Source: an uncultured delta proteobacterium
GTDB taxonomy: Bacteria > Desulfobacterota > Desulfomonilia > UBA1062
DNA: 64,000 bases
NCBI GenBank assembly: GCA_963752595.1
Contig: CAVVYZ010000005.1
Coordinates: forward strand, 64,001-128,000
Direction: 5' to 3'
Part shown: positions 35,936 to 49,170 of the stretch, piece by piece
Layout: every line of letters starts with the position of its first letter
Position numbering within the stretch: position 1 is the first letter of the stretch
Program-made: the position numbers and the translations under genes
The notes under the pieces: model-generated
Seen by the model: the letters and a program-made list of their open reading frames with translations, nothing else
Told to the model about the DNA's origin: nothing
The model's database searches: none

Positions 35936-36104
35936 ACTGTTCGCTCCTCCTTCCGGAGTTATCCCATGTCCAACGGCACAGATCACCCGGCACCTGCAAG
36001 CATAAATTATTTGTTAAGATCTCAATATACACTTTTCACAGGAACAGGGAAACGCCCGTCTATCGCAGCTATGTTCACTCTCAACGCGGTGAATCTCAAC
36101 AGTT

Positions 36105-36764
36105 CTACAGCTTTGCCACATATACAATGTGCCGCAATCCTCCGTGGCCCGGCCGCGAGGTGCTCACGCGAAATCCGGCCCTGCACAGACGTTTGTCGAA
36201 CGCGCTGTCATAGTTCTCGCCCCACACAGCAAAGACACCGCCCGGTTTGAGCGCGGTGCGCGTCCACTCAATGGCGCGGCTGCCGTAGAACGGGTCGTCG
36301 CGCTTGTGGGACGCGGCGTGGGGACCGGTGTAGAGGTCCAGGATAATGGCATCGAAGCCTTCGGCGGCCTTGCGAATGAGGTCGGTCACATCGGCAATCT
36401 CGACATTGACGCGCGCATCTGATACGGCGCCCTGTGTGAGCCCTGCCAAAGGACCCCGACACCATTTCAGCACCACGGGATTGATCTCGGCCACGATGAC
36501 CCGGGCCGTGGCAGGCAGCGTATCAAGAGCAGCTTTGAGCGTGAACCCCATTCCCAGACCGCCCAGCAGAACGCGTGGGAACGCCTGCTGCCGGAGATGG
36601 CTGCATGCAATCCGGCCCAGGGCAACCTCAGAGCGATTCGCCGCACTGTTCATCAGCACCTGAGTGCCGAGCTTGATGAGAAAATCCCGTTCACCCCGTT
36701 GGCGCAGCTCAAGGACCCCATCCGTGGTGGATATGCTCTCGATGGTTTTCCAGGGTTGTGTCAT
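36105..36764 (-). CDS. Spermidine synthase-like SAM-dependent methyltransferase
   Basis: VLLGGLGMGFTL, FDAIILD, LKPGGVFAVW. Confidence 0.85.
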   Translation of the reverse strand: MTQPWKTIESISTTDGVLELRQRGERDFLIKLGTQVLMNSAANRSEVALGRIACSHLRQQAFPRVLLGGLGMGFTLKAALDTLPATARVIVAEINPVVLKWCRGPLAGLTQGAVSDARVNVEIADVTDLIRKAAEGFDAIILDLYTGPHAASHKRDDPFYGSRAIEWTRTALKPGGVFAVWGENYDSAFDKRLCRAGFRVSTSRPGHGGLRHIVYVAKL

Positions 36765-36874
36765 GGGCGTTCCTGATACCTTTTTCACCCGTTATACACG
36801 AACAACAGGCATTGTAAACATCCTGCCGGAGCACATAAAAACACTCTGCAGTGGAACCATTGGGGGCCGCGACT

Positions 36875-38182
36875 GGTTAAGTCTCTATAGTTCTGTAAAA
36901 AGGTAAAACGAGCCAAGAGCAACTCCGATAAAGCGAAGTGACCAAACAAACGCTTGAAGGAGGAGCAGATGGCTCGCAGGGAAGATGATAAGGATTTATT
37001 GGGTATTTGGCAAGAGGCGACGGTGCAAGGAGACGATGGTTTGCGGAGAGTAATGGAATCGGCAATACAAAGGATCCTTGAAGAAGAACTGACCTCATTT
37101 CTCCAGGCAGAGACTCAGGAACGGGTACAAGCCGAGGGCATTGATGACCCGGCTGGGACGGATGGAGCTTCTGGTGCCCAAGGACCGGGAAGGCCGGTTT
37201 CAGACCGAACTCTTCGATCGATATCAAAGGAATGAGAAGGCATTGATGCTGTCATTGGTAGAGATGTACGTGCACGGGGTATCGACCCGGAAGGTCAAAG
37301 CAGTTACCGAGGCCTTGTGCGGATTAGACATATCGAAGAGTCAGGTATCCCGGTTGGCGAAAGACCTGGACGAGGAAGTAAAGGCATGGAGAAGTCGTCC
37401 ATTGAAGAAGTCCTATCCGTATCTGGTGGTGGACGCCCGATATGAGAGGATAAGAATCAATCATCAGGTATTACCGCAGGGTGTTCTTCTGGTAGTGGGC
37501 ATAGGAGAGGATGGGTATCGTGAGATCCTGGGCACCTGGGTAGCCGATTCCGAGAACGAGGCGAGCTGGTCTGAGGTATTCAAGGAACTCAAGGAAAGAG
37601 GCCTCAATGGTGTACGGTATGTGGTGTCTGATGATCATGCCGGTCTTGTTAAAGCCATTGGAAGGCACTTTCAGGGTTGTCTGTGGCAGCGATGCCAGGT
37701 TCATTTTCTCCGCAACATCATTTCTCAGGTCAGCAAGAAGGATCGGCCCAGGATCATAGAGATGGTCAGGGACATCACGGCTGCACAGAGCTATGAGATT
37801 GCCCGTAAGCGGATGGATGAGGTCATCGAGGCCTTGGAGAAGACTCATCCAAAGGTATCTCAGATGCTCGACGAGCATGGAGAAGAGATTCTTTCTGTCT
37901 ACCAACTGCCTCTCCATCACCGGAGATCGATGAAATCCACGAACATGCTGGAGCGGTACAATCAGGAACTGAAGCGCAGAACTAGGGTAGTTCGCATTTT
38001 TCCTCATCAGGAATCCTGCCTCAGACTGGTGACTGCCATGGCCATGGAAATGAGTGAAGAATGGATGGTCCGCCGATACCTCATCTTCGAAGATGGGGTA
38101 TCGGATAAGAACATAAAAGATCAGCTGGCTGCTTAATGCTTATGTCGGAGATTGCAATTTACAGACAATCGGGGACTTGACT
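36875..38182 (+). mobile_element. IS256 family insertion sequence (1308 bp) with 8-bp target duplication
   Basis: Imperfect terminal IRs GGTTAAGTC..TCTGTAAA / TTTACAGA..GACTTGACT; direct repeat CCGCGACT at 36867-36874 and 38183-38190. Confidence 0.92.
36969..38136 (+). pseudogene. IS256 (Mutator-type) transposase with small N-terminal deletion/frameshift
   Basis: MYVHGVSTRKV, YLVVDARYE, VVSDDHAGL, WQRCQVHF, STNMLERYNQELKRRTR; frame breaks near 37115 just before RNGY. Confidence 0.85.
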
Positions 38183-38257
38183 CCGCGACTCAAAATTCAA
38201 CAAAGTTGATGCCCTCAATCCTACTAAATAATTGTCGCTGAATTACGATTATCATCC

Positions 38258-38635
38258 GAGGCTGTCGGAAAAGTCCGAAGACTTCTTATGGAATATTTCC
38301 TAATAATTTCTTGCTAATGCCATTATAGCCTATTTCATGTGAGAAGGACCTCATCATCTATTTGAGCAGGGGGGAGCAGAGCTTTCGGCGTAGCCGGAAT
38401 GTGACAGCGGCAGCCGCTCTTGCTGAGGAACCTTATTGAAAGGTATATTAACCGTATGAAACATTTCAGATCCCTCGCAACTCGGTATGATAAATCAGCT
38501 TCAAGCTATCGGACCTTGTGGACCATTGGTGCTATACTCCTATGTCTCTAGCTTTTACTTTGCGTACAGCACCTAGATCATTCTGTGAGGTCGTTTTCTG
38601 ATCACCATTGATCATTTTACTTTTTCGACAGTCTC
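38258..38635. mobile_element. Degenerate IS1182-type element ends enclosing an IS5 fragment
   Basis: GAGGCTGTCGGAAAAGT ... ACTTTTTCGACAGTCTC inverted ends; right part shares CATTCTGTGAGGTCGTTTT with the 147-bp MITE. Confidence 0.6.
38426..38576 (+). pseudogene. IS5 family transposase C-terminal remnant with right end
   Basis: RNLIERYINRMKHFRSLATRYDK...; ends GTACAGCACCTAG. Confidence 0.75.
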
Positions 38636-38694
38636 TATAGATATCTGCACATTATCCTATTCATCCTATTCAAGAAATAGCTCATATCTTCATG

Positions 38695-38841
38695 GAGGCT
38701 GTTGAAAAACTCCGGGAAGTGCAAAAACTATCAAATCGGGACCATCAAAACACAAGCCTCGATCAATAAATTTCCAATGTCGGGCATTCTGTGAGGTCGT
38801 TTTTTTGTCACTTTTCAACCTTTTAGTTTTTCAACAACCTC
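38695..38841. mobile_element. 147-bp MITE (IS1182-type ends), copy 1
   Basis: GAGGCTGTTGAAAAACT...AGTTTTTCAACAACCTC terminal IRs; flanked by ATG/ATG; identical to 42650-42796. Confidence 0.88.
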
Positions 38842-38904
38842 ATGGGATATCTGTAGTACTAGTCAACGCTGGAAGGTTCAAAGTATATCAATTTTAATGA
38901 ATAT

Positions 38905-38966
38905 GTCTGTAATAAGTGTTATACATAAATATATGCAGAATTAATTCTGCATGTCCATTGTTCGAA
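38905..38966 (+). other. attI-like site / first cassette junction (G|TTCGAA)
   Basis: GTTCGAA at 38960-38966 is the exact complement of TTCGAAC closing cassette 1; preceded by GTTATAC and the perfect palindrome ATGCAGAATTAATTCTGCAT (38933-38952). Confidence 0.6.
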
Positions 38967-38981
38967 TCATAGGAGTATAGC

Positions 38982-39611
38982 GTGGGATACACTAAAAAGG
39001 ACTGGGTAGCACGAATCCGCGAACGTACAGATATGAGCACCCTCTTGACTCATCTGACCAAAGAGGGTCCGGATGGTAAAATTTCTAGGGAGGTCCTTCT
39101 TAAGATATTACTTGAGCAACGGCTCATAGGGAGTACAAGTACTCAAGGATTCATTTGCGGTGACACTCCTGCGGTATGCTTCCAAGATGCTCCTCTTTAC
39201 TCGATTGCTCAGAACACGCTATTCGAGCAGAAGATGCGCCAAGATCGCAAATCATCAGTTGTCCGCTATAGGCCTCTTGGGTTAGCTTTCCCCAAACCAT
39301 ATCTCTACATGAAAGGGGCACGGCCAGTTGTGTACGATGATACCGAAAATGCAAAGAGGTTTCTCCCAAGAAATGAATGGTGGCGCATCGTTCGGCTTGA
39401 TCTTTCAAATGAGAATGCCTTCGTGGATTGGACTCATGAACGTGAGTGGCGGCTTCCTGGAAATCTTGAATTCAACTTGAGCGAGGTTACTTTACTCGCA
39501 GTCGACAATGAGGCAGTGAGTAATATCGCTGCGCTATATATGAAGGAAACTGGCAGGGAGATTAGAGACGAGATCGGAGGCATAGTGACCATGCGAGATG
39601 TTCTCTACTGA
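38982..39611 (+). CDS. AbiGi/DUF2971-like ADP-ribosyltransferase-fold protein (cassette 1)
   Basis: LTHLT, VCFQDAP, GLAFPK..GARPVVY, DWTHEREWR motifs; GTG start with AGGAG RBS. Confidence 0.68.
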   Translation: MGYTKKDWVARIRERTDMSTLLTHLTKEGPDGKISREVLLKILLEQRLIGSTSTQGFICGDTPAVCFQDAPLYSIAQNTLFEQKMRQDRKSSVVRYRPLGLAFPKPYLYMKGARPVVYDDTENAKRFLPRNEWWRIVRLDLSNENAFVDWTHEREWRLPGNLEFNLSEVTLLAVDNEAVSNIAALYMKETGREIRDEIGGIVTMRDVLY

Positions 39612-39624
39612 TTAGGACTGGAGG

Positions 39625-39681
39625 TTCGAACAAGCTAATTCAGCGGACGGCTTACATCCGCCGCTGATCCGCACGTTCGAT
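39625..39681 (+). other. Integron attC site 1
   Basis: R'' TTCGAAC, L'' AATTCAGC, stem GGACGG/CCGCC, L' GCTGATC, R' GTTCGAT; just after the ORF stop. Confidence 0.88.
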
Positions 39682-39721
39682 GCATGAGAAAAAGATACTG
39701 CCAGGCTTATGGAGGTGACCA

Positions 39722-41023
39722 GTGTCAGTAGCCGATATGTTTTCCGAGTTCATTGCCAATCTTGCGATCGACAACTCTGAAACGATCAGCTCACGTTACG
39801 GTGAACTGACCACGGCACTAAACAAGGCATTCCGGGACACAGAGTCGAAGACTGCAAACACGCTTCAAGTTGGATCGTTCGGAAGGAAAACTGGCATCAA
39901 AGGTATTTCCGACTTGGATATGCTTTATCTCATGCCCAAGTCAAAGTGGGACGCCTACAAAGACTCTAAGCAGCTCAAGCTTCTTCAGGATGTGAAGACA
40001 GCCATTCTCAATCGATATCCAAAAACTGACGTTCAGGTTGATCGGCTTGTAGTAACCGTCACCTACACGAACTTTTACGTAGAGGTGCAGCCCGTATTCG
40101 AGCAAGATGATGGAAGCTTTAAGTATCCTGACACGAAGAATGGAGGCGTATGGAAGACCACCAAACCACGAGAGGAAATGAATGCTATTGCAGAATTGGA
40201 CACGTGGAAGAACTCAAACCTTCGTCGACTCTGCAAAATGGCTCGCGCATGGAGGAATAAGCATGGTGCCGGAATGGGGGGCCTCCTTATCGACACGCTT
40301 GCATACAATTTTCTTAAGTCGACAAGCGAGTATGATACAAAGAGTTTCCTTTACTATGATGAACTCAGCCGGGATTTCTTCGAATATCTCTCTGAACTCC
40401 CCAAGCAAGACCGCTACGACGCTCCCGGAAGCAAGCAGCATGTCAAAGTCAAGAAAGCATTCCAACGAAAAGCAGCGAAAGCATATCGCCTCTGCGTCAA
40501 GGCAATTGAGGCGGAAGGCACAAAGGGCGTTAACGATAAGTGGAAGAAAGTATTTGGACGCCCATTCCCCGCTAACGCCGAACTGACAAAAGAGGTCGTC
40601 CTCGCGAATAGCACAGCGACTTGGGACGATACTGAGGAATTTATTGAAGACCGATACCCCGTCGACATCCGCTACACACTTAAGATTGACTGCGACGTAA
40701 AACAGAACGGCTTCCGCGAGGACCGCTTAAGCGCGATGCTCGCAAAGATGATTCCTTTGCTAGCGAAGAAAACACTCGAGTTCGAGATTGTGCAGATAGA
40801 TGTGCCAGGGAAGTATTCGATTGAATGGAAGGTTCTTAACAGAGGAGAGGAAGCCCGCAGGCGTAACAAAATAAGAGGGCAAATTGTCCGTGATGATGGA
40901 TCTCACACGAAGATTGAACCAACCTCTTTCAAAGGCGACCACGTTGTCGAGTGTTATGCAATAAAGAATGGAGTGGTTGTAGCGAAAGATCGAATCCACG
41001 TGCCAATCAGTACAAACGGTTAA
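39722..41023 (+). CDS. CBASS CD-NTase: SMODS nucleotidyltransferase with C-terminal AGS-C domain (cassette 2)
   Basis: GSFGRKTGIKGISDLDML catalytic motif, VEVQPVF..YPDT..GG.WK.T.P; C-terminal EEFIED..WKVLNRG.EA..IRGQI..E.T.F.G.H.VECY (AGS-C). Confidence 0.9.
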   Translation: MSVADMFSEFIANLAIDNSETISSRYGELTTALNKAFRDTESKTANTLQVGSFGRKTGIKGISDLDMLYLMPKSKWDAYKDSKQLKLLQDVKTAILNRYPKTDVQVDRLVVTVTYTNFYVEVQPVFEQDDGSFKYPDTKNGGVWKTTKPREEMNAIAELDTWKNSNLRRLCKMARAWRNKHGAGMGGLLIDTLAYNFLKSTSEYDTKSFLYYDELSRDFFEYLSELPKQDRYDAPGSKQHVKVKKAFQRKAAKAYRLCVKAIEAEGTKGVNDKWKKVFGRPFPANAELTKEVVLANSTATWDDTEEFIEDRYPVDIRYTLKIDCDVKQNGFREDRLSAMLAKMIPLLAKKTLEFEIVQIDVPGKYSIEWKVLNRGEEARRRNKIRGQIVRDDGSHTKIEPTSFKGDHVVECYAIKNGVVVAKDRIHVPISTNG

Positions 41024-41027
41024 TGCC

Positions 41028-41603
41028 ATGAAGAAAGAAGACATCCTTAGAAACATAGCCGAAACAGGGTATAATGTAGGCTTTGGTGCGAAGAAACACT
41101 TCGCTACGTACGACATTGTGGCAAAAGTTCCTGGTCTAATTGGTTTTGCATCGACTGCAGTTGGTATCTTCGCCCTCTTTATAGATTTTCTCTCCACGAA
41201 GCATCTATCCGCTGCGTTTATAGTCTTTGGTGTTGCGGGACTTTTCATCAGCCATTACGACCATAAAAAGCAGAGCTATGCGGACGCAGGAAGCGAACTT
41301 ACCGTACTATTTAACCGACTAAAGGCGCTTTATTTCAACGTAAAGGGGACCGATGCGCGCGATCTCAACGAGTTCGAAAATGAGCTGGTGAATATTGAAC
41401 ATGATTATTACGCTAAATGTATAAGCGAGCAGATCCTCTTTAGTGATTGGTATGCTCACTACAAGTTCTTCTGGCAGCACCAAATTGGTTGGATCGAAGA
41501 GCAGAAGCGATTTCGGTTCTTTCGCGATAAGGTACCGCTTAGCCTTATGGTGACGATTCTTTTTGTGGTGATCGTATCTGGTTTGGTTATCTGGTTGGGT
41601 TAA
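41028..41603 (+). CDS. SLATT-domain transmembrane CBASS effector (cassette 2)
   Basis: IAETGYNVGFGAKKHFATYDI, two TM helices, helical region, SDWYAHYKFFWQ, terminal TM; starts 4 bp after the cyclase stop. Confidence 0.85.
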   Translation: MKKEDILRNIAETGYNVGFGAKKHFATYDIVAKVPGLIGFASTAVGIFALFIDFLSTKHLSAAFIVFGVAGLFISHYDHKKQSYADAGSELTVLFNRLKALYFNVKGTDARDLNEFENELVNIEHDYYAKCISEQILFSDWYAHYKFFWQHQIGWIEEQKRFRFFRDKVPLSLMVTILFVVIVSGLVIWLG

Positions 41604-41631
41604 AAAAACCATTAACGGTTCATAGAGCGGC

Positions 41632-41686
41632 ATCGAACAAGGCGGCGGACGCCGACAAGTCGCGCCGCTGAGCTTAAACGTTACTC
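41632..41686 (+). other. Integron attC site 2 (L'' box appears partly deleted)
   Basis: R'' ATCGAAC is the exact complement of GTTCGAT at the cassette start; GCGG..CCGCTGAGCTTAAAC; R' GTTACTC. Confidence 0.8.
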
Positions 41687-41699
41687 CAGGAGTCTGAAA

Positions 41700-42506
41700 G
41701 TGCCATCTTGTAAAATATGTAGAGAAGCTATTTTCGATGGTATTCATCTTTCCGATGGTGAGATGATCCATGAATCGTGCTTGAAAAACATTCAAGGCAA
41801 GGAAAAGGAAGTTGAAAACTACATATATGCACAGAAAGATAAATTGAAAAGGCTTAGGCAAGAAATTGAAAGACGTGAAGGGTTGGGATTTAAGATTATA
41901 TCAATATTTTCAAAGCCTGACATTGCTACCTTTGACATAGAAAGGGAAATTCCAACAATTGAGAAAAATATTTCTAGTTTGTCCAACAACTTGATATCCT
42001 TGCAAGCTTATACCACTTCTATTTACGATTACTTTCTTTCATATCCCCCTGATTGGGAAAAAAGAAGACGTCAAGTAATAGAAAGAGATGGTGAGCAATG
42101 CAGTGAATGCGGGAACGGGGGGCATCTTCACTTACACCATATCAAGCCCTTATCTAAGGGAGGCAGTAATAAAATATCAAATTTAAAACTGCTATGTGAA
42201 AATTGTCACTCGGAAGAGCACTGTGGGCGAAATTTCTCTGGTGAGTTTAACAGTTCGGAAACAGCATTTTCTAAACGTTTAGCAAATATACGATATGCCA
42301 TAGACAACGGAAAGCGTATTAAATTTAGCTACATGAAGTATAACGAAAAAAGCTATAAACAAAGAACCGTTAAGCCAGCTGAACTTGTAAATTTAGACCA
42401 TCATAGAGATAGTGGATCAACTCTTTGTGTTCGTGGATATTGTGAACTAAGGGAAGCGGAACGCGTATTTGCATTAAAGCGAATGAAGGGCCTGAAAGTA
42501 TTATAG
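41700..42506 (+). CDS. Zn-finger/coiled-coil/HNH endonuclease/WYL fusion protein (cassette 3)
   Basis: CKIC..HESC; coiled coil; YPPDW..RDGEQCSEC..HLHHIKPLSKGGSNKISNLKLLCENCH (HNH); AIDNGKRIKFSY..RTVKP..RGYCELREAERVFALKRM (WYL). Confidence 0.82.
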   Translation: MPSCKICREAIFDGIHLSDGEMIHESCLKNIQGKEKEVENYIYAQKDKLKRLRQEIERREGLGFKIISIFSKPDIATFDIEREIPTIEKNISSLSNNLISLQAYTTSIYDYFLSYPPDWEKRRRQVIERDGEQCSECGNGGHLHLHHIKPLSKGGSNKISNLKLLCENCHSEEHCGRNFSGEFNSSETAFSKRLANIRYAIDNGKRIKFSYMKYNEKSYKQRTVKPAELVNLDHHRDSGSTLCVRGYCELREAERVFALKRMKGLKVL

Positions 42507-42530
42507 GCATAACAAGCCCATCAACTCGGA
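42507..42530 (+). other. Truncated attC half-site
   Basis: GCATAACAAGCCCATCAACTCGGA immediately after the stop; no matching L'/R' half visible. Confidence 0.55.
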
Positions 42531-42649
42531 TAGGGGATTTCCCCCAGGAATAGATCTCAATAAGCACCAAAAAGTAGTTATCGGAATGGTCAAAACAATT
42601 GGCAGGGCTCAAAACCCTTCATATTGTTTTTAGTATACACATTATCCTA

Positions 42650-42796
42650 GAGGCTGTTGAAAAACTCCGGGAAGTGCAAAAACTATCAAATCGGGACCAT
42701 CAAAACACAAGCCTCGATCAATAAATTTCCAATGTCGGGCATTCTGTGAGGTCGTTTTTTTGTCACTTTTCAACCTTTTAGTTTTTCAACAACCTC
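42650..42796. mobile_element. 147-bp MITE (IS1182-type ends), copy 2
   Basis: Identical to 38695-38841, same orientation; flanked by TA/TA. Confidence 0.88.
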
Positions 42797-42851
42797 TATA
42801 GAGGTCTGTCCTTTCGGATGAAAATATAGATGCTTTGATATCCTTTGAACA

Positions 42852-44129
42852 TCAGGGATCAAGATTAGATACGTCCACGCATGATAAGGGACTTTTCTCA
42901 ATTTTGACCAGATACAGCGGGGAAAGCACTGTCAGGCCAAGAGCGATAATCATTAAGGCCTGACCTAAACCAAGATAGTCGGCCAGAAGACCGATTACAA
43001 AAGCCAGGACGGCGGTGTAGAATGCGGTTACCAATGAGCGGACAGACAGCGATGTCGCCAAGATTTCGCATGGTACGGTGTCACTCACGTAGGTTACGCT
43101 CATAGGCGACCTCAGGTTTTGGATAATAAAAATGCCCGTGAACAGAACAACTGCCGCAAAGCCATAGCCGAAATGATAAGTGAAGCCACAGAGGATGCCG
43201 AGACAGAAGCCTGTGAGCATCGTGAGATTCAGTGGTCTGGTAAGCGTATCGAAGTGCGCGGTAAATTTGCCTGAATACCTGCTGGCCCATGATGTCATTA
43301 AATAAATACAAAAGTAGACTATGCCTACTAATACAGCCGAACGCTGTTTAGCTTGAAACATGACCAGCACAGGCAAAGTCAGAGCTAAGCTCTTGATGAT
43401 GGGCTGCAGGAAATCTTTGACGGCATTGTAAAACCCGTCATAGATGCAGACATTGGTAGTTGCCCTGAAGGCCCCCTGTCCCCTGAACGTAACCTTCAAA
43501 CTCTGCCATACCATGAAGAAGCTTTCCTTGATACTGTCACTCTTATTAATTTCCCGATCCAGCTCCTGGGGATATGTGAGCATCAGGAATAGGTTCAGGA
43601 CATAGGGCAGGGTCGATATCAGAAAGATCACATCGTATCGTCCGCTCACGAAGACGATTGCCGCCGCGATCAGGGCTGAAACCGCCGAACCCTTCTGAGA
43701 CCAGGAACGGGTATGCCCGTAGTAGTCTACCTTTTGATCCTGCCAGCCGTTCATCTTGAGGTATTCGAAAATCATGGCCTTGTGAGTGCCTCCCCTGAAT
43801 GCTTCACCGAAGGCAAAAAAAGTCATGGCAAGCATCATGAGCCAGAAAGCTGATGCGTAATAGAAGATAAGGAAGGATGTGATGTAGGCCAGAAATGACT
43901 GAACCATTGTTCGTCGACGGCCGAGCGCATCAGCGATAACACCGGTAGGTACCTCCATGAGGCTTGTCATGATTTCCCGGTAGGCATAGAGCGTACCGAT
44001 CAGTGTGTAGCTCAAGTTTTTTTCCAGCAGGAACAGGATCAGAAAAGGCTCGAAGAGCTTAAGGTTTTTCAGGAAACCATAGGCGCTGAACTTGACGAAC
44101 TGGAGATCCTTTTTGTATTTTTCAGCCAT
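42852..44129 (-). CDS. MFS transporter
   Basis: ~12 hydrophobic segments; EVPTGVIADALGRR motif. Confidence 0.9.
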   Translation of the reverse strand: MAEKYKKDLQFVKFSAYGFLKNLKLFEPFLILFLLEKNLSYTLIGTLYAYREIMTSLMEVPTGVIADALGRRRTMVQSFLAYITSFLIFYYASAFWLMMLAMTFFAFGEAFRGGTHKAMIFEYLKMNGWQDQKVDYYGHTRSWSQKGSAVSALIAAAIVFVSGRYDVIFLISTLPYVLNLFLMLTYPQELDREINKSDSIKESFFMVWQSLKVTFRGQGAFRATTNVCIYDGFYNAVKDFLQPIIKSLALTLPVLVMFQAKQRSAVLVGIVYFCIYLMTSWASRYSGKFTAHFDTLTRPLNLTMLTGFCLGILCGFTYHFGYGFAAVVLFTGIFIIQNLRSPMSVTYVSDTVPCEILATSLSVRSLVTAFYTAVLAFVIGLLADYLGLGQALMIIALGLTVLSPLYLVKIEKSPLSCVDVSNLDP

Positions 44130-44732
44130 GGGTTGTTGAGCGTCTCCGTGAACCTTTTACTATCCACCCCTAAAAAGATAACGTACACAAAGAATGCCCT
44201 CTTGAGTGCCTCTATTAACACGAAGATCATCTGTTATGGAATTGGGTTTAGTGCTACAATTTTCATCATGAGTCATGAAAAAACATTTTTTCTGCATAAG
44301 CAGGTTCTCGTCCGCTATCCCAACCCTGTCGGTGTGGGCATCGCTGTTGGAGGCAGTGCTGTATTTTTATGCGGCCGTCAGTCTGATCGCCTATATGATG
44401 GAGGATGACCGGGTAGCAAGCGGGAACTCTGATGTCATGGCTGTACACGTTATGGTAAAGGCATGGTCAATTGATGGGGAGATTATAAAGAGCTCTGCCA
44501 ATCGTTATAGTCTCAAGTATTAAGTAATTTTGTACGGATATATCTTGAAGATCATAAATTTCTAAATATTGTAAAACCAAAAATTTATCGCGAAACTGTC
44601 AGTACTTTTAGTAAGTCCCTTACATAGCTCTTGAATAAGTGAAGTGCATCGCTACAATAAATGTGTGGAATGCGCTACAGGTGAGCCTAGTTGATAGTAG
44701 AGTTTTATCAAGATATGAATGGAGCTTATTAA

Positions 44733-45038
44733 ATGAAAATTTCAGAATGGTTGGATAAAAAGGAAGCAGAAGGCTTCGATGTATCTCAAATCATATTGCC
44801 TGATGCCGTATCTTTTAACGATGATCCCACCGAAACTATTTTTTTTAAGGAGATTAGGCCTTGCGGAATCCTCTGCACAGGCAATCATCCGTTTTCTACT
44901 GTTGAACGCTTTGAACACTGGTATTATAGCAGAGGCCAAGACAAAGAGGCCGGTATTCACTCCTCCAAGATGAAGTGGTGGTTGTTTACAAAGGATAAAG
45001 ATACCGCTGTCGATGCAGCTAAGTCACACATAGAATAA
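44733..45038 (+). CDS. Hypothetical protein (101 aa)
   Basis: GGAG RBS; plausible ORF in an AT-rich stretch. Confidence 0.6.
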   Translation: MKISEWLDKKEAEGFDVSQIILPDAVSFNDDPTETIFFKEIRPCGILCTGNHPFSTVERFEHWYYSRGQDKEAGIHSSKMKWWLFTKDKDTAVDAAKSHIE

Positions 45039-45384
45039 TCTGATCTAATTACGTGGCTATATGATCTTTTGAGGAGATCTTCGTCAGGCCTCTGTTTTGA
45101 TAAAATAGTGCCATGCAAAAGCAAGTGTTCAGTATTTATATTATTATAAACTATAATTATAATAATTGTCGTAACATTCATTATTCTCAAAGCTATATAC
45201 CTGGACTATAGAGATCATCACAGAATCTATGGTCTTGAAAAATCCAACTCGTTTCGTTGCCTCTAGCACAGGATATTCAATATTTCGGATATTTCGGAAT
45301 AATAGAGTCCGTGACATACAGTAAATTCTCATATTATCATATTACAAGAAATCAGTAAGCAACATTTTAATTAATAAATGATGT

Positions 45385-45415
45385 AAGGCAGGGCAGCATA
45401 CGCTGCCCTGCCTTT
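45385..45415. terminator. Hairpin downstream of secreted repeat protein
   Basis: AAGGCAGGGCAGC-ATAC-GCTGCCCTGCCTT. Confidence 0.6.
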
Positions 45416-45432
45416 GAAGGTACATCTGATTA

Positions 45433-47376
45433 TCAGCCTTTTCCCTTGTCGTGAGGAACGATGATCTTGATGGTTGCCGAACTCTGGTTGCCGGCTGTGT
45501 CTGTTGCATAGATCGTGATGGTATACGTTCTCCCGATACCGGACCCTGATCGTTCAGACCTGAGCTGCAGGGTGATGATCCCTGTCTGCTGGTCGATGAC
45601 CGGGGTGATCCAGTCAGGTGATACATCGCCATCTCCCAGACCGTCTTCCGGCTCATTGCTTGTCACTGTGGCGGACAGGCTTACGGGCATCCCACTCGAA
45701 TCGAATGCATTGGCCACGATGTCAACGGTTACCATCTTGTGGTTCGGTGGCCACAGGATGCCTGTGTCCGCGTAGGGGGCGAGGGTCGGGGCTGTGGAAT
45801 CGATGACATTCACGGTAGTCTGCGTGCTGACAGGGTCATTCACGCCATCGCTCACGGAAAGGGTCAGCGTATGCTGGCCGAGCATCAGGCCTGATGCCGT
45901 ACAATACGGGATCTGAACAGGGCTGCCTGCAAGTATCGACTGGATGGTTCCAGAGCATATAGTCTGGCCGTCCGCTTTCCATTCGTAGCTCAATACATCC
46001 CCGTCAAAATCGGAAGCCTCTCCGCTGAGGAACACGTCCGCGCCGTATTCATACGTCCCGCCGCCTCCCAAGATCGCCGCATGGGGGGCTGAGTTGTTTA
46101 AGGTAAAGATCATGGTGTCGGAGGCGCTTATCACCCCGTCCGTTACCTCGAGGGTAAGGGTGTAGGTGCCGGGCGGTATTTGGGCGCCCTGCGGGACAGT
46201 GAGGATGCAGTCCATGTTCTGGCTGACCGGAGTCCATCCGAGGAGCATGGTCTGCCCGCTATACCATCGGTAGGTGAGCGGCCTGGAGCCGTTGTACTGG
46301 GCCTTCCCATACATGGTTGTGCCATAGAGATTTTCACTGTACACGGTGATGTTGGGTCCTGCGTCTGCGGATATCTGAATGACAGGGTCGGGCAGGATGG
46401 TGATCGTCATCGTGTCTGTGGAGCTTTTCACCCCGTCCGTCACCTCGAGGGTCAGGGTGTAGGTGCCGGGCGGTATTTGGGCATCCTGCGGTATGGTGAG
46501 GTTGCAGCCCATGTTCTGACTGACCGGAGTCCATCCGAGGAGCATTGTCTGACCGCTATACCACCGGTAGGTGAGCGGCCTGGAGCCGGTGTAAATTGTC
46601 TTCCCCTGAATGACGGTATTCGGTAAATCCTTTACGTACACGGTCATGTCAGGCCCTGCATCTGCTGTGAGTTCTGTGGGAACAGAGATCGGACTGAGAT
46701 CGAGCTGTGCGTAATCAAAGGCGATAAAGGGCTCTTCCGGGGCAACGATCTCAATCGTCACCACCCCATCCAGCATATCCGCCCAGGGCACCTCATAATA
46801 CGCTCGCCAGATGAGTCCATCCTGAAAAGTCCCTGCGGAAGAATTCCCACTGAGAATCACCTGCTGACCTTCCACAACTGCATACATGGTTCCCACATCA
46901 TAGTCAGCATAGAGAAAACTGACATAGTGATTCTTTCCATAATCCGCATCACCTGGCTCAGGAACAGCAAAGGTAAAGGTGAAATAGGCATCGTCTGCGA
47001 TTCCCGGGGGATTGTAAAGCAGGGGAAATTGCGTATGCATCAGATCAGCATAAGCAGACAGGGTTATATCCGTCCATCGTGCACCGTTTGAAGGATCCTT
47101 TTCCGAAGCAGAACGGTTGTCGAAGACATCCCCGATTTCCCCTGACTCGAGCTGCATATCCCCGTCCTGATCGATGTCCGGGAGCACGTCGCCGGCTCCG
47201 AGGATGCCGTCGCCGTTTCTGTCTGCAGGGAGCCCGTCGAATCCGAGAAGGGATGATGCATTGGTATAACCAAAGCCATCGATATCCCCGATTACAACTG
47301 ATACAGCATGAACATCCATGCAACTTAAAAACACCATGAGTCCAAATAGAATACTGAACAACCTAACTTTTTTCAT
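45433..47376 (-). CDS. Secreted protein with Ca-binding DxDxDG motifs, PKD/Ig-like repeats and LWPPNHKM C-terminal domain
   Basis: Signal peptide; DRNGDG/DIDQDGD; ADAGP..LTYRW..GTYTLTLEVTDG repeats. Confidence 0.8.
   Translation of the reverse strand: MKKVRLFSILFGLMVFLSCMDVHAVSVVIGDIDGFGYTNASSLLGFDGLPADRNGDGILGAGDVLPDIDQDGDMQLESGEIGDVFDNRSASEKDPSNGARWTDITLSAYADLMHTQFPLLYNPPGIADDAYFTFTFAVPEPGDADYGKNHYVSFLYADYDVGTMYAVVEGQQVILSGNSSAGTFQDGLIWRAYYEVPWADMLDGVVTIEIVAPEEPFIAFDYAQLDLSPISVPTELTADAGPDMTVYVKDLPNTVIQGKTIYTGSRPLTYRWYSGQTMLLGWTPVSQNMGCNLTIPQDAQIPPGTYTLTLEVTDGVKSSTDTMTITILPDPVIQISADAGPNITVYSENLYGTTMYGKAQYNGSRPLTYRWYSGQTMLLGWTPVSQNMDCILTVPQGAQIPPGTYTLTLEVTDGVISASDTMIFTLNNSAPHAAILGGGGTYEYGADVFLSGEASDFDGDVLSYEWKADGQTICSGTIQSILAGSPVQIPYCTASGLMLGQHTLTLSVSDGVNDPVSTQTTVNVIDSTAPTLAPYADTGILWPPNHKMVTVDIVANAFDSSGMPVSLSATVTSNEPEDGLGDGDVSPDWITPVIDQQTGIITLQLRSERSGSGIGRTYTITIYATDTAGNQSSATIKIIVPHDKGKG
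46131..46667. repeat. Intragenic tandem duplication, 297-bp period
   Basis: 46131-~46370 closely matches 46428-~46667 (SRPLTYRWYSGQTMLLGWTPVSQNM occurs twice). Confidence 0.85.
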
Positions 47377-47609
47377 TGAATCCCTCCTCTTTTGGTTAAG
47401 GTACTATCGAAGGTAATCGTTTCTGGAGGCCACCATCGTACGGTTAACGAGTCCCCTACGTAATGTAAATCGCTGCCGTCAGGATTACCCCATGCCAGGA
47501 CATAATAATTGTCCACACAGATGGTTGCCGTTACGATTTTGGCTGATGCCTGAACTGCATACCCAGCTATGAAAAAGGCCAGGAACAGAAAGATTACTCC
47601 CCTTTTCAT
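47373..47609 (-). CDS. Short secreted protein, possibly a truncated remnant
   Basis: GGAG RBS, signal peptide MKRGVIFLFLAFFIAGYAVQASA; stop overlaps the next ATG. Confidence 0.55.
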   Translation of the reverse strand: MKRGVIFLFLAFFIAGYAVQASAKIVTATICVDNYYVLAWGNPDGSDLHYVGDSLTVRWWPPETITFDSTLTKRGGIQ

Positions 47610-48121
47610 AAGAAAACTCCATTCAGATATGTAAATTACTTTATTGGACAATGCGCTGAATAATCTTCTTAGAGGAAGGTACCTGAGATGCTAGTTAAAC
47701 TCATGGAGGAAAACCTACAGTCTAGAAAGAGATGCAAGATCTATGCTATATGTTCACTGATTAAATATCTATTAATATTAAAGAAATAAAACCTAATAGT
47801 TGCCCCATAGACCTCCTGTGGAGAAATATTCTTCCGCAAAGGTGGAAAATAATTTGTCAGATCTTTCTGTAGGGGGACGGGTTAGGGGATAGGGGACGGA
47901 GGGTAGAGTGAAACTGACTGCGGTACGCCTGTCGGGACTTTCATTAACGCCTTGTCTCACCGGAGTATCTACCTCATCAGTCTCCCCTCATCAAACCGTA
48001 CATATTGTTCTCCAACAACTGCTTTTCCGAGTGACCAGACTCTTTATGTCAAAATAGGTCTTATAGGAAGTCAATATTCCTTGAAGTTATCTCTAGTCTG
48101 CTAATACATATGATCTCATCA

Positions 48122-48788
48122 GAGGGTGTTGAAAAACCCGTTTTGGAAGATGTACTTGTATCCCTGAACCGACCCATGGGAGGTCGTCATTATCGCTGAC
48201 TCGTTATCCGTCATGTTGCTCTTGATCTCCTTGCCTTTCTTCCCACCCTTCCCGTCGTTCTCCTCAAGCCATGCCTTTATCCGCTGTGCCTGCTTCGTGA
48301 GTTTCTCGATCTGCTTTTCCTTGCTGCTCCCGGATGGGGGAGGCGGATCATCATCCTTCCTGTCTTCATCCTCCTGCTCCTTGAGCATCTGCCGCACCTT
48401 CTCTTCGATCCGGGCCTTCTTCCGCTTCAGATCGGAGACCTTCCCGCTCCACTGCTTCGAAGCATTCGATGGAAGCTTGCACCCGTCCCGGGCAAAAAAC
48501 GTCCCGCCTAAAAGTTCCAACTCCTCACATACCAGCAGAATGTTCCTGAACAACGGCAGGATCTCGTCCTTCATGGTGGGGACAAACGTGGCTATCGTCG
48601 TATGATCCGGGCATTGCCCGCAGGATAAGGCCATGAATACGATATTCTCACGGCAGGCCTGCTCGATCTTCCTCGATGAGATCAATCCCCGAGAGTATCC
48701 CAGCAGCACTACCTTCAGCAGAATCTTCGGGTCATAGGCCGGACTGATAGCTTCCTTGAGACTTTCTGGGGACTTTTTCAGCAGCTTC
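48122..48788 (-). mobile_element. Internally deleted IS1182 family element
   Basis: AYDPKILLK..SSRKIEQAC..PDHTTIA..TDNES..GY transposase fragment between ends GAAGCTGCTGAAAAAGT and TTTTTCAACACCCTC. Confidence 0.82.
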
Positions 48789-49170
48789 TTCGAAGATCTC
48801 AACTGGCGGGAGATGAATCCTCAGTTTAAGTCCCTAAAAGAATTAAAAGATCCGAGGGGATCACAAATCGAACAAGCTGTATGTACGATAACTTCTTGAC
48901 TAAAGCAGTTTTTTTGCCTAATCAAATCTCAACTATTACGGCTTAAGATCCGGTCGGACATTCTTCAGAAAGATGACCACCTGGCGCACTCAGATCGGAT
49001 CATAGCTGCTACTCCCCCGATATCACGGAGTAAATATCATTCCATAAGGCTTCACAGATGTTGCATACATACAAATGACTTCGTCACAATTACTCGTCGG
49101 CATCAAGCTTTCATGGTTGAGAAATGGCGATCCCTGCGTGCTCGATTCACGTCCATTGGGAGTGAATCCT

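Follow-up and report, generated by a model that had tools for sequence, protein, structure and literature searches.

CapW, BrxR, DriD and PafBC have a common WYL fold, operate in a defence or DNA-stress setting and are wHTH-WYL-WCX proteins whose output is transcription. The accessible text on CapW describes an ssDNA crevice that uses WCX domains, and reports that ssDNA binding shifts the protein's conformation and frees dsDNA (PMC11662680). According to the available part of Mueller et al. 2019, a survey that omits small classes, more than 90% of WYL proteins carry an HTH. Another setting is found in the Pif1 helicases TePif1, DdPif1 and SsPif1, in which a C-terminal WYL domain without WCX is fused to an enzyme. 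The isolated TePif1 WYL domain is reported in the available text to bind ssDNA and not dsDNA, and in the full-length protein, a monomer, the WYL domain couples binding to catalysis (10.1101/163188). Fusions with a nuclease were noted by Makarova et al. 2014, whose available text lists HNH among the WYL fusions and proposes that WYL senses nucleic-acid fragments as ligands (PMC4012209); Supplementary File 6 gives as examples a 402-residue protein of Gracilimonas tropica and a 524-residue protein of Clostridium sp. CAG:768 with the order SIG+HNH+HNH+WYL. On the nuclease side, EcoKMcrA and other reader-HNH type IV restriction nucleases also combine a reader domain and an HNH domain in one chain.

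The gene described here, which we call HNH-WYL, occupies positions 41700..42506 on the forward strand of the window, the 64,000-nucleotide stretch of DNA that was analysed; domain, cassette and attC coordinates below refer to the same strand. It starts with GTG, preceded by AGGAG at 41688–41692, ends with TAG and encodes 268 amino acids, as supported by Pfam, AlphaFold2 and homologue searches. Its GC content of 0.368 (GC3 0.32) compares with 0.530 for the genome and 0.44–0.48 for the three upstream genes, in line with the AT-richness noted in the preliminary description. Together, Pfam and AlphaFold2 place a Zn-finger motif, a helical hairpin, an HNH domain and a WYL domain in this order. The AlphaFold2 model, built with 55 aligned homologues (pLDDT 91, pTM 0.78), consists of a short β module, helices spanning residues 25–59, 62–70 and 77–109, the HNH domain, a low-confidence linker and the WYL barrel; the linker (residues 181–186, pLDDT <50) is predicted to be disordered. 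Besides HNH and WYL, the Pfam search of the protein returned only HNH_5, and no modified-base reader family. The domain layout first proposed, a 268-residue open reading frame with CxxC..HxxC, a coiled coil, HNH and WYL, is confirmed by Pfam scores above the cut-offs and by the predicted hairpin. The proposed absence of wHTH and WCX also holds, since a Zn finger and a hairpin make up the N-terminus and the chain stops at the WYL domain.

A first homologue search yielded 152 relatives among 546 candidates, and a profile search, counting matches with E of at most 1e-30, extended the family to 246 clusters of 50% identity. Of 141 new representatives, 136 span both HNH and WYL, and the Zn finger is covered as well in 118 of these. 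The pairing of HNH and WYL is not due to chance, because 115 of the 120 matches listed, the query's own entry included, carry both domains; the best Atlas match has the same two domains at a score of 0.96, and the matches without WYL look like truncations or frameshifts. HNH-WYL is a real, conserved, uncharacterised four-module protein. Variants carry a second WYL, or N-terminal TPR, ankyrin or DnaJ_C domains (P0225, P0172, P0255 and P0147). The gene is present in a single copy in the host and was not found in any of 11 genomes of the same genus. It matched in 2 of 60 relatives, in one of them only at WYL; elsewhere in the phylum it was found in 1 of 400 further genomes, with at most six candidates scored per genome. 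IMG/VR holds one relative, and searches of 50,697 phage and 72,556 plasmid records (E 1e-12 and 1e-15) detected none. HNH-WYL is therefore a sporadic cellular accessory gene that is widespread and nearly absent from phages.

The WYL domain (residues 189–268; 42264..42503) is matched by Pfam at residues 194–267 with E 2.2e-10 and 40.8 bits, compared with a cut-off of 21.8. In structure comparisons its barrel fits BrxR, CapW, PafBC and DriD (Z 9.3–11.1, rmsd 1.6–3.3 Å over 73–79 residues), so that both the Pfam match and the Sm-like barrel fold bear out the earlier assignment of the C-terminus as WYL. The protein ends directly after the domain, leaving no room for WCX, and the tail after WYL is at most 15 residues long in 126 of the 136 representatives. 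Among PDB sequences it comes closest to the C-terminal WYL regions of the Pif1 helicases 8bns and 8bnv, which the WYL profile matches with E 7.7e-10 and 2.9e-9. These Pif1 regions are modelled and absent from the crystals, and DdPif1 R464, R491, R495 and R501 are among five arginines modelled on ssDNA, as given in the available text (PMC9964779). The four align to R222, R251, R255 and R261 of HNH-WYL, while the fifth, R498 (by offset TePif1 R504), corresponds to Ala258 in 85% of the family. By residue offset, three of the four mutated TePif1 WYL residues appear to be kept. R222, C248, R251 and R255 are jointly present in 132 of the 136 representatives and R261 in 92%; the R/C/R positions are common to the Pif1 helicases and HNH-WYL, which, unlike the Pif1 WYL, has an additional conserved C243. 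By analogy with the WYL domains of Pif1, CapW and DriD, we infer that this WYL domain binds ssDNA.

The YPPDW-HNH nuclease domain (residues 113–175; 42036..42224) contains C134/C137/C166/C169, H146, H147, N161, H170 and H174 and is matched by Pfam HNH at residues 134–174 (E 4.6e-11, 43.1 bits compared with a cut-off of 21.4). H146, H147, N161, H170 and H174 align with the same spacing to EcoKMcrA H228, H229, N243, H252 and H256, which the available text describes as a metal ligand, the water activator, a structural Asn and two further ligands, with all four histidines required for activity (PMC6182155). The HH-N-H-H site and the Cys4 Zn motif are shared with the reader-HNH type IV restriction nucleases in exact register, and all five key residues are kept in 130 of the 136 distant representatives. 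With a Pfam score above the cut-off and with Cys4, the structural Asn, the activating His and the histidines that bind the metal all in place, the domain belongs by sequence with the Zn-binding McrA-like HNH endonucleases, and its register with EcoKMcrA suggests that it is catalytically active. The two differ in their readers: EcoKMcrA-type readers recognise modified bases, whereas in HNH-WYL the reader is the C-terminal WYL domain, for which ssDNA is the expected ligand by analogy. HNH-WYL also has a hairpin with an amphipathic tip, unlike the EcoKMcrA-type nucleases. Zorya type II ZorE is similar at HNH only (PADLOC, E 1.5e-7 to 3.9e-5); its NCBIfam model scores 18.3 bits against HNH-WYL compared with a cut-off of 600, and the array in the window has no ZorA or ZorB. 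ZorE is a nuclease that acts near the membrane, which makes it an analogy to HNH-WYL; it is not known to have a WYL domain. An identity as IscB was rejected, since NF040563 reaches 54.9 bits compared with 175 and covers residues 118–177 only.

The N-terminal segment begins with a C3H zinc-finger motif formed by C4, C7, H24 and C27 (41709..41780), for which a treble-clef-like fold is predicted. These residues are kept in 86–93% of the 136 distant representatives, and where they are missing the alignment almost always has a gap. The CxxC knuckle, hairpin and HxxC at the start of a helix agree, in motif and predicted topology, with a treble clef; the best fold matches are to Zn fingers but weak, to ZAD, ClpX ZBD and CsfB at Z 4.1–4.6 (none above 4.6), with no Foldseek match at E 0.001, and residues 1–115 have no usable Atlas match. 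ZAD, ClpX ZBD and CsfB dimerise. The helical hairpin, placed at residues 25–109 by the AlphaFold2 secondary structure (41772..42026), carries at its tip a basic, aromatic amphipathic helix at residues 61–71 (41880..41912), a predicted membrane anchor that we take to resemble the MinD membrane-targeting helix. Gap-free windows could be compared in 64 of 141 representatives; there, this segment has a hydrophobicity of 0.69 compared with 0.14–0.18 in four flanking windows, a charge of +1.5, 2.1 aromatics and 0.14 acidic residues, compared with about 2 acidic residues in the flanking windows, and it is also much more basic and aromatic than they are. The best hydrophobic-plus-amphipathic window falls 0.3–0.6 of the way along the linker for 86 of 108 representatives.

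Two relatives, P0186 and P0211, have an N-terminal transmembrane-like helix in place of the whole module, and P0189, whose sequence is incomplete, may also carry a transmembrane-type N-terminus. Transmembrane-like hydrophobicity occurs in 4 of 136 representatives, and a search seeded with P0211 found 19 proteins and no large transmembrane subfamily. In a tree of 70 of the 147 cores, made by a quick method, the three transmembrane-type rows stand apart, without strong support for independent origins. Conservation of the tip, together with the transmembrane swap in two relatives, suggests membrane tethering; amphipathic tips can also be protein-contact surfaces.

Comparison with named systems covered PADLOC 2.0, NCBIfam 20 and PHROGs and gave no full-length match; DefenseFinder and the 2025 integron screens may bear on novelty. 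In PADLOC 2.0 and NCBIfam 20, the matches of the query, like those of 55 aligned family members, are all partial and confined to HNH or WYL, and the PHROGs matches are centred on the HNH region only. Searches of the open literature found no study of an HNH-WYL protein, and the available text of PMC11754643, PMC12839542, PMC13434031 and bioRxiv 10.64898/2026.03.17.712381 contains no relevant WYL passage. The earlier view that this architecture is not a named system therefore stands as far as PADLOC 2.0 and NCBIfam 20 are concerned, but the combination of HNH and WYL and the sensing idea are already in Makarova et al. 2014. The sensor-effector idea for HNH plus WYL is thus not new; the fusions in the available text of that study have the same HNH-then-WYL order and the same ligand-sensing defence logic. 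They comprise two proteins, offered as a prediction only, and the available text mentions neither a Zn finger, a hairpin or a membrane tip nor a cassette setting or a dead subfamily. What is new is the Pif1-type WYL, the conserved amphipathic tip with its transmembrane swap, and a Poribacteria dead-HNH subfamily in which the WYL arginines are kept.

In the window, an attC array carries the gene as its third unit. The first cassette (38982..39611), whose core sites are 7/7 complementary, encodes a 209-residue protein with a weak AbiGi-like match (E 0.0088, below cut-off) and no match in PADLOC, NCBIfam or PHROGs; this lone AbiGi-like gene is itself a defence candidate. It is followed by an intact attC of the host's own type (39625..39681) and a two-gene CBASS cassette (39722..41603) with a SMODS-AGS_C cyclase (39722–41023) and a SLATT_6 2TM effector (41028–41603). 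The attC closing the CBASS cassette (41632..41686) is without the 5' half of its L'' box and belonged to the training set of the attC model that detects it; its R' core starts the HNH-WYL cassette. Behind the gene lies a truncated attC (42507..42545), missed by the model, which retains the R'' core and the start of L'' only and whose R'' is 5/7 complementary to the R' of the HNH-WYL cassette. In the attC alignment, 85.5% of cells are paired, with compensatory changes at 7 pairs. The best reading is that HNH-WYL is a decayed one-gene cassette independent of CBASS, since the attC at 41632–41686 separates the two. The preliminary description had placed it as a cassette next to CBASS: the adjacency stands, the gene is best read as a decayed cassette, and CBASS is a neighbouring cassette with which it shares no system. 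A role as a CBASS component was likewise rejected because of this attC, and CBASS is adjacent in only 1 of 42 other non-Poribacteria loci (L087), with an unrelated cyclase that is 23% identical to that of the window.

The host genome contains 28 attC sites in six clusters by a model scan, 10 of them training sites, and an integron integrase (457 bits compared with 265) lies beside the array on host contig C20. That contig holds a complete chromosomal integron at 114958–133848 that contains at least 14 attC sites and whose cassettes are for the most part unannotated; methyltransferases, a hydrolase and a GTPase are among its genes. Four further attC clusters lie on contigs C2, C13, C16 and C26. 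According to the available text of a 2026 review, at least a third of the unknown-function cassettes of mobile integrons are anti-phage, compared with 16 of 88 for chromosomal integrons (PMC13434031), which raises the prior for a defence role of HNH-WYL.

Several further elements surround the array. Identical 147-bp miniature inverted-repeat elements at 38695–38841 and 42650–42796 bracket the three cassettes; their ends match an end at 48121–48137 beside a DUF772 transposase fragment, and a 97% identical copy lies on contig C20 near 192.8 kb. The reading of the two elements as a composite transposon is not supported, as the outer flanks share no duplication; the flanks suggest separate insertions. 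An AT-rich inverted repeat at 38930–38966, just before the first R' core, could be attI-like or a promoter remnant and has no match elsewhere in the host genome. Upstream of the array, an IS256-family (Mutator) transposase at 36969–38136 is split by an apparent frameshift near 37110–37140. An Rfam scan of 36000–49000 gave nothing relevant, and a promoter and terminator scan was near chance (12 compared with 7.7 ± 3.2).

For the neighbourhoods of homologues, we collected 68 loci from GTDB (50 titled Poribacteria and one similar) and 63 from metagenomes. After six duplicates were dropped, 50 non-Poribacteria loci were left, 42 of them with flanking ORFs; the duplicate pairs L080/L005 and L081/L074 remained. 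At a PADLOC threshold of 1e-25, 12 of the 110 nearest genes match, in 8 of the 42 loci, compared with 3 of 40 distal genes of the same loci (40 of 43 compared) and 0 of 45 genes of the window (45 of 47 compared). The matches include Kiwa with PDC-S31 at L005 and L080, Hhe at L062, CBASS at L087 and a type IIG RM at L105. Weaker among the 12 are generic ATPases at L025 and L099 and a partial DEDDh at L077, and the two at L080 repeat L005. By Pfam, Abi_alpha flanks L001 and HEPN_AbiU2/Mrr_N flank L007, and type I RM and HicB were also found. Most of the 42 loci are without a recognised defence neighbour. The defence association is moderate: it is enriched over host genes but not over distal genes. 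The defence neighbourhood suggested at the outset accordingly holds for the window and a minority of homologous loci, with the qualification that distal genes match at a similar rate. The single-gene character proposed earlier is supported outside Poribacteria, where no conserved partner gene recurs. At L077, a DEDDh exonuclease-WYL fusion (L077:810-1646) lies two genes from the HNH-WYL homologue and beside a phage-type integrase, giving two WYL-nuclease fusions in one locus.

The suggested integron enrichment did not extend to the family. By a strict test with a sensitivity of 15/28 and 2/150 false positives, attC directly flanks 2 of the 50 non-Poribacteria loci, and the host-trained attC model gave 6 matches in 132 homologue loci. 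An R''-like TAAC after the stop occurs in 5 of 18 close homologues compared with 13 of 364 controls, in a test chosen after seeing the data. Core complementarity of at least 6/7 was not enriched, with 1/16 close, 1/18 distant and 1/51 Poribacteria loci compared with 7/500 AT-rich host controls.

In Poribacteria, the gene is present in 46 of 131 genomes, and all matches are without internal stops. The HNH domain there is degenerate: all four histidines are found in 0 of 50 sequences, with His at H146 in 0/50, at H170 in 25/50 and at H174 in 5/50. Cys4 and H147 are invariant, and R222, R251, R255 and R261 are present in 50/50. Median identity is 0.81 for WYL, the best-conserved part, compared with 0.68 for HNH. 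The subfamily is probably non-catalytic, judging from these sequences; as the metal ligands are lost yet the gene is kept intact, the Poribacteria protein would do something other than cut. Most copies in the Poribacteria loci (L008–L066) lie in one variable hotspot. An AAA_35-PD-(D/E)XK gene, which has 8–13 copies per genome in the three genomes checked, is the immediate neighbour, on either side, in 36 of 51 loci. For 29 of the 51 loci, which are not independent, a IIG RM, DarTG, Zorya II, ApeA or type II RM lies no more than 5 kb away. Some of the DarTG in the hotspot are DarT-DarG fusions. Because the subfamily is probably non-catalytic, this context is indirect evidence for the protein of the window.

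The reading we favour, at a probability of about 0.42, is that HNH-WYL is a stand-alone anti-phage or anti-plasmid DNase directed by its WYL domain and possibly tethered to the membrane, the defence role being proposed from context. The WYL domain would grip exposed ssDNA, and the flexibly tethered HNH domain would be brought onto the same DNA that WYL holds and cut there. The amphipathic helix is predicted to hold the enzyme at the inner membrane, and the Zn finger may provide for dimerisation. The host would be protected from its own enzyme because little free ssDNA is normally exposed. The closeness of the domain to the enzyme-accessory, ssDNA-binding Pif1 WYL favours such substrate reading over allosteric switching. 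We rank it narrowly higher because the nearest WYL is of the Pif1 type and the CapW crevice uses WCX. The partner enzyme differs, being a helicase in Pif1 and a nuclease in HNH-WYL; compared with the wHTH-WYL-WCX regulators, HNH-WYL has no wHTH or WCX, and its output would be cleavage.

The best-surviving alternative, although unlikely, is an allosteric sensor-effector, the reading given in the preliminary description. In it, ssDNA or RNA fragments produced by infection or by other defences would bind WYL and switch on an otherwise silent HNH domain, which would degrade DNA broadly and abort the infection. The conformational change of CapW on ssDNA in the accessible text (PMC11662680) and the ligand sensing proposed by Makarova et al. 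2014 provide precedents, and a nuclease for which no conserved antitoxin or methylase partner is seen must be self-limiting. The pTM of 0.78 would be compatible with a WYL domain docked against the other modules, and the conservation of WYL above HNH in the probably dead Poribacteria form is as expected of a sensor. However, WCX and the signal-relaying linker helices of the CapW type are absent, the nearest sequence relatives are the enzyme-accessory Pif1 WYLs, and the linker is predicted to be disordered.

We consider it improbable that the protein acts outside defence, as an accessory ssDNA-processing nuclease for DNA damage or recombination intermediates, or that it is a neutral passenger of mobile DNA. 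The WYL proteins PafBC and DriD act in DNA-damage responses in the available accounts, the majority of the 42 loci show no recognised defence neighbour, integron cassettes carry many functions, and the gene is kept in 46/131 Poribacteria genomes. Yet the gene is sporadic and AT-rich and shows no family-wide linkage to repair genes, and its neighbours are CBASS (twice, and unrelated), Kiwa, Hhe and RM, with IIG RM, DarTG, Zorya II and ApeA in Poribacteria. More doubtful again is a sensor or adaptor that needs a partner, whose WYL domain detects ssDNA and recruits or activates another nuclease, its own HNH being optional. The degenerate HNH with invariant WYL arginines and the frequent AAA_35-PD-(D/E)XK neighbour in Poribacteria would fit this, but that neighbour is multicopy, and most of the loci go back to a single ancestral hotspot; homologues from other lineages have an intact HNH and show no recurrent partner, and the copy in the window is a one-gene cassette. 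A selfish, free-standing homing-type HNH endonuclease with WYL as its DNA-binding domain is very improbable: the resemblance of the HNH part to many phage HNH families and to the IscB HNH segment would fit it, but these matches cover essentially the HNH region only, and the gene is single copy in the host, with one IMG/VR relative and none in the phage and plasmid collections.

Taken further than the favoured WYL-directed DNase, HNH-WYL could be a nuclease licensed by ssDNA that is tethered to the inner membrane, patrols it and destroys entering or unwound DNA, with the dead Poribacteria derivative repurposed as an ssDNA sensor for the AAA-PD-(D/E)XK nuclease. We regard this full picture as unlikely. 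If the patrol reading were true, the DNA targets would be conjugative strands, transforming DNA, and filamentous or injected phage DNA, and HNH-WYL would be the first enzyme whose WYL domain directly licenses a nuclease; the WYL roles characterised so far in the available literature are a switch on transcription factors and a grip on a helicase. Literature searches found no test of the 2014 prediction of WYL-controlled nucleases. A partner-free protein of 268 residues makes WYL control of a nuclease testable through its HNH, WYL and membrane-tip parts, and the dead-HNH subfamily and the transmembrane-swap variants provide natural controls. If HNH-WYL guards DNA entry, it would provide a barrier to ssDNA transfer encoded by one gene, and a compact nuclease triggered by ssDNA.
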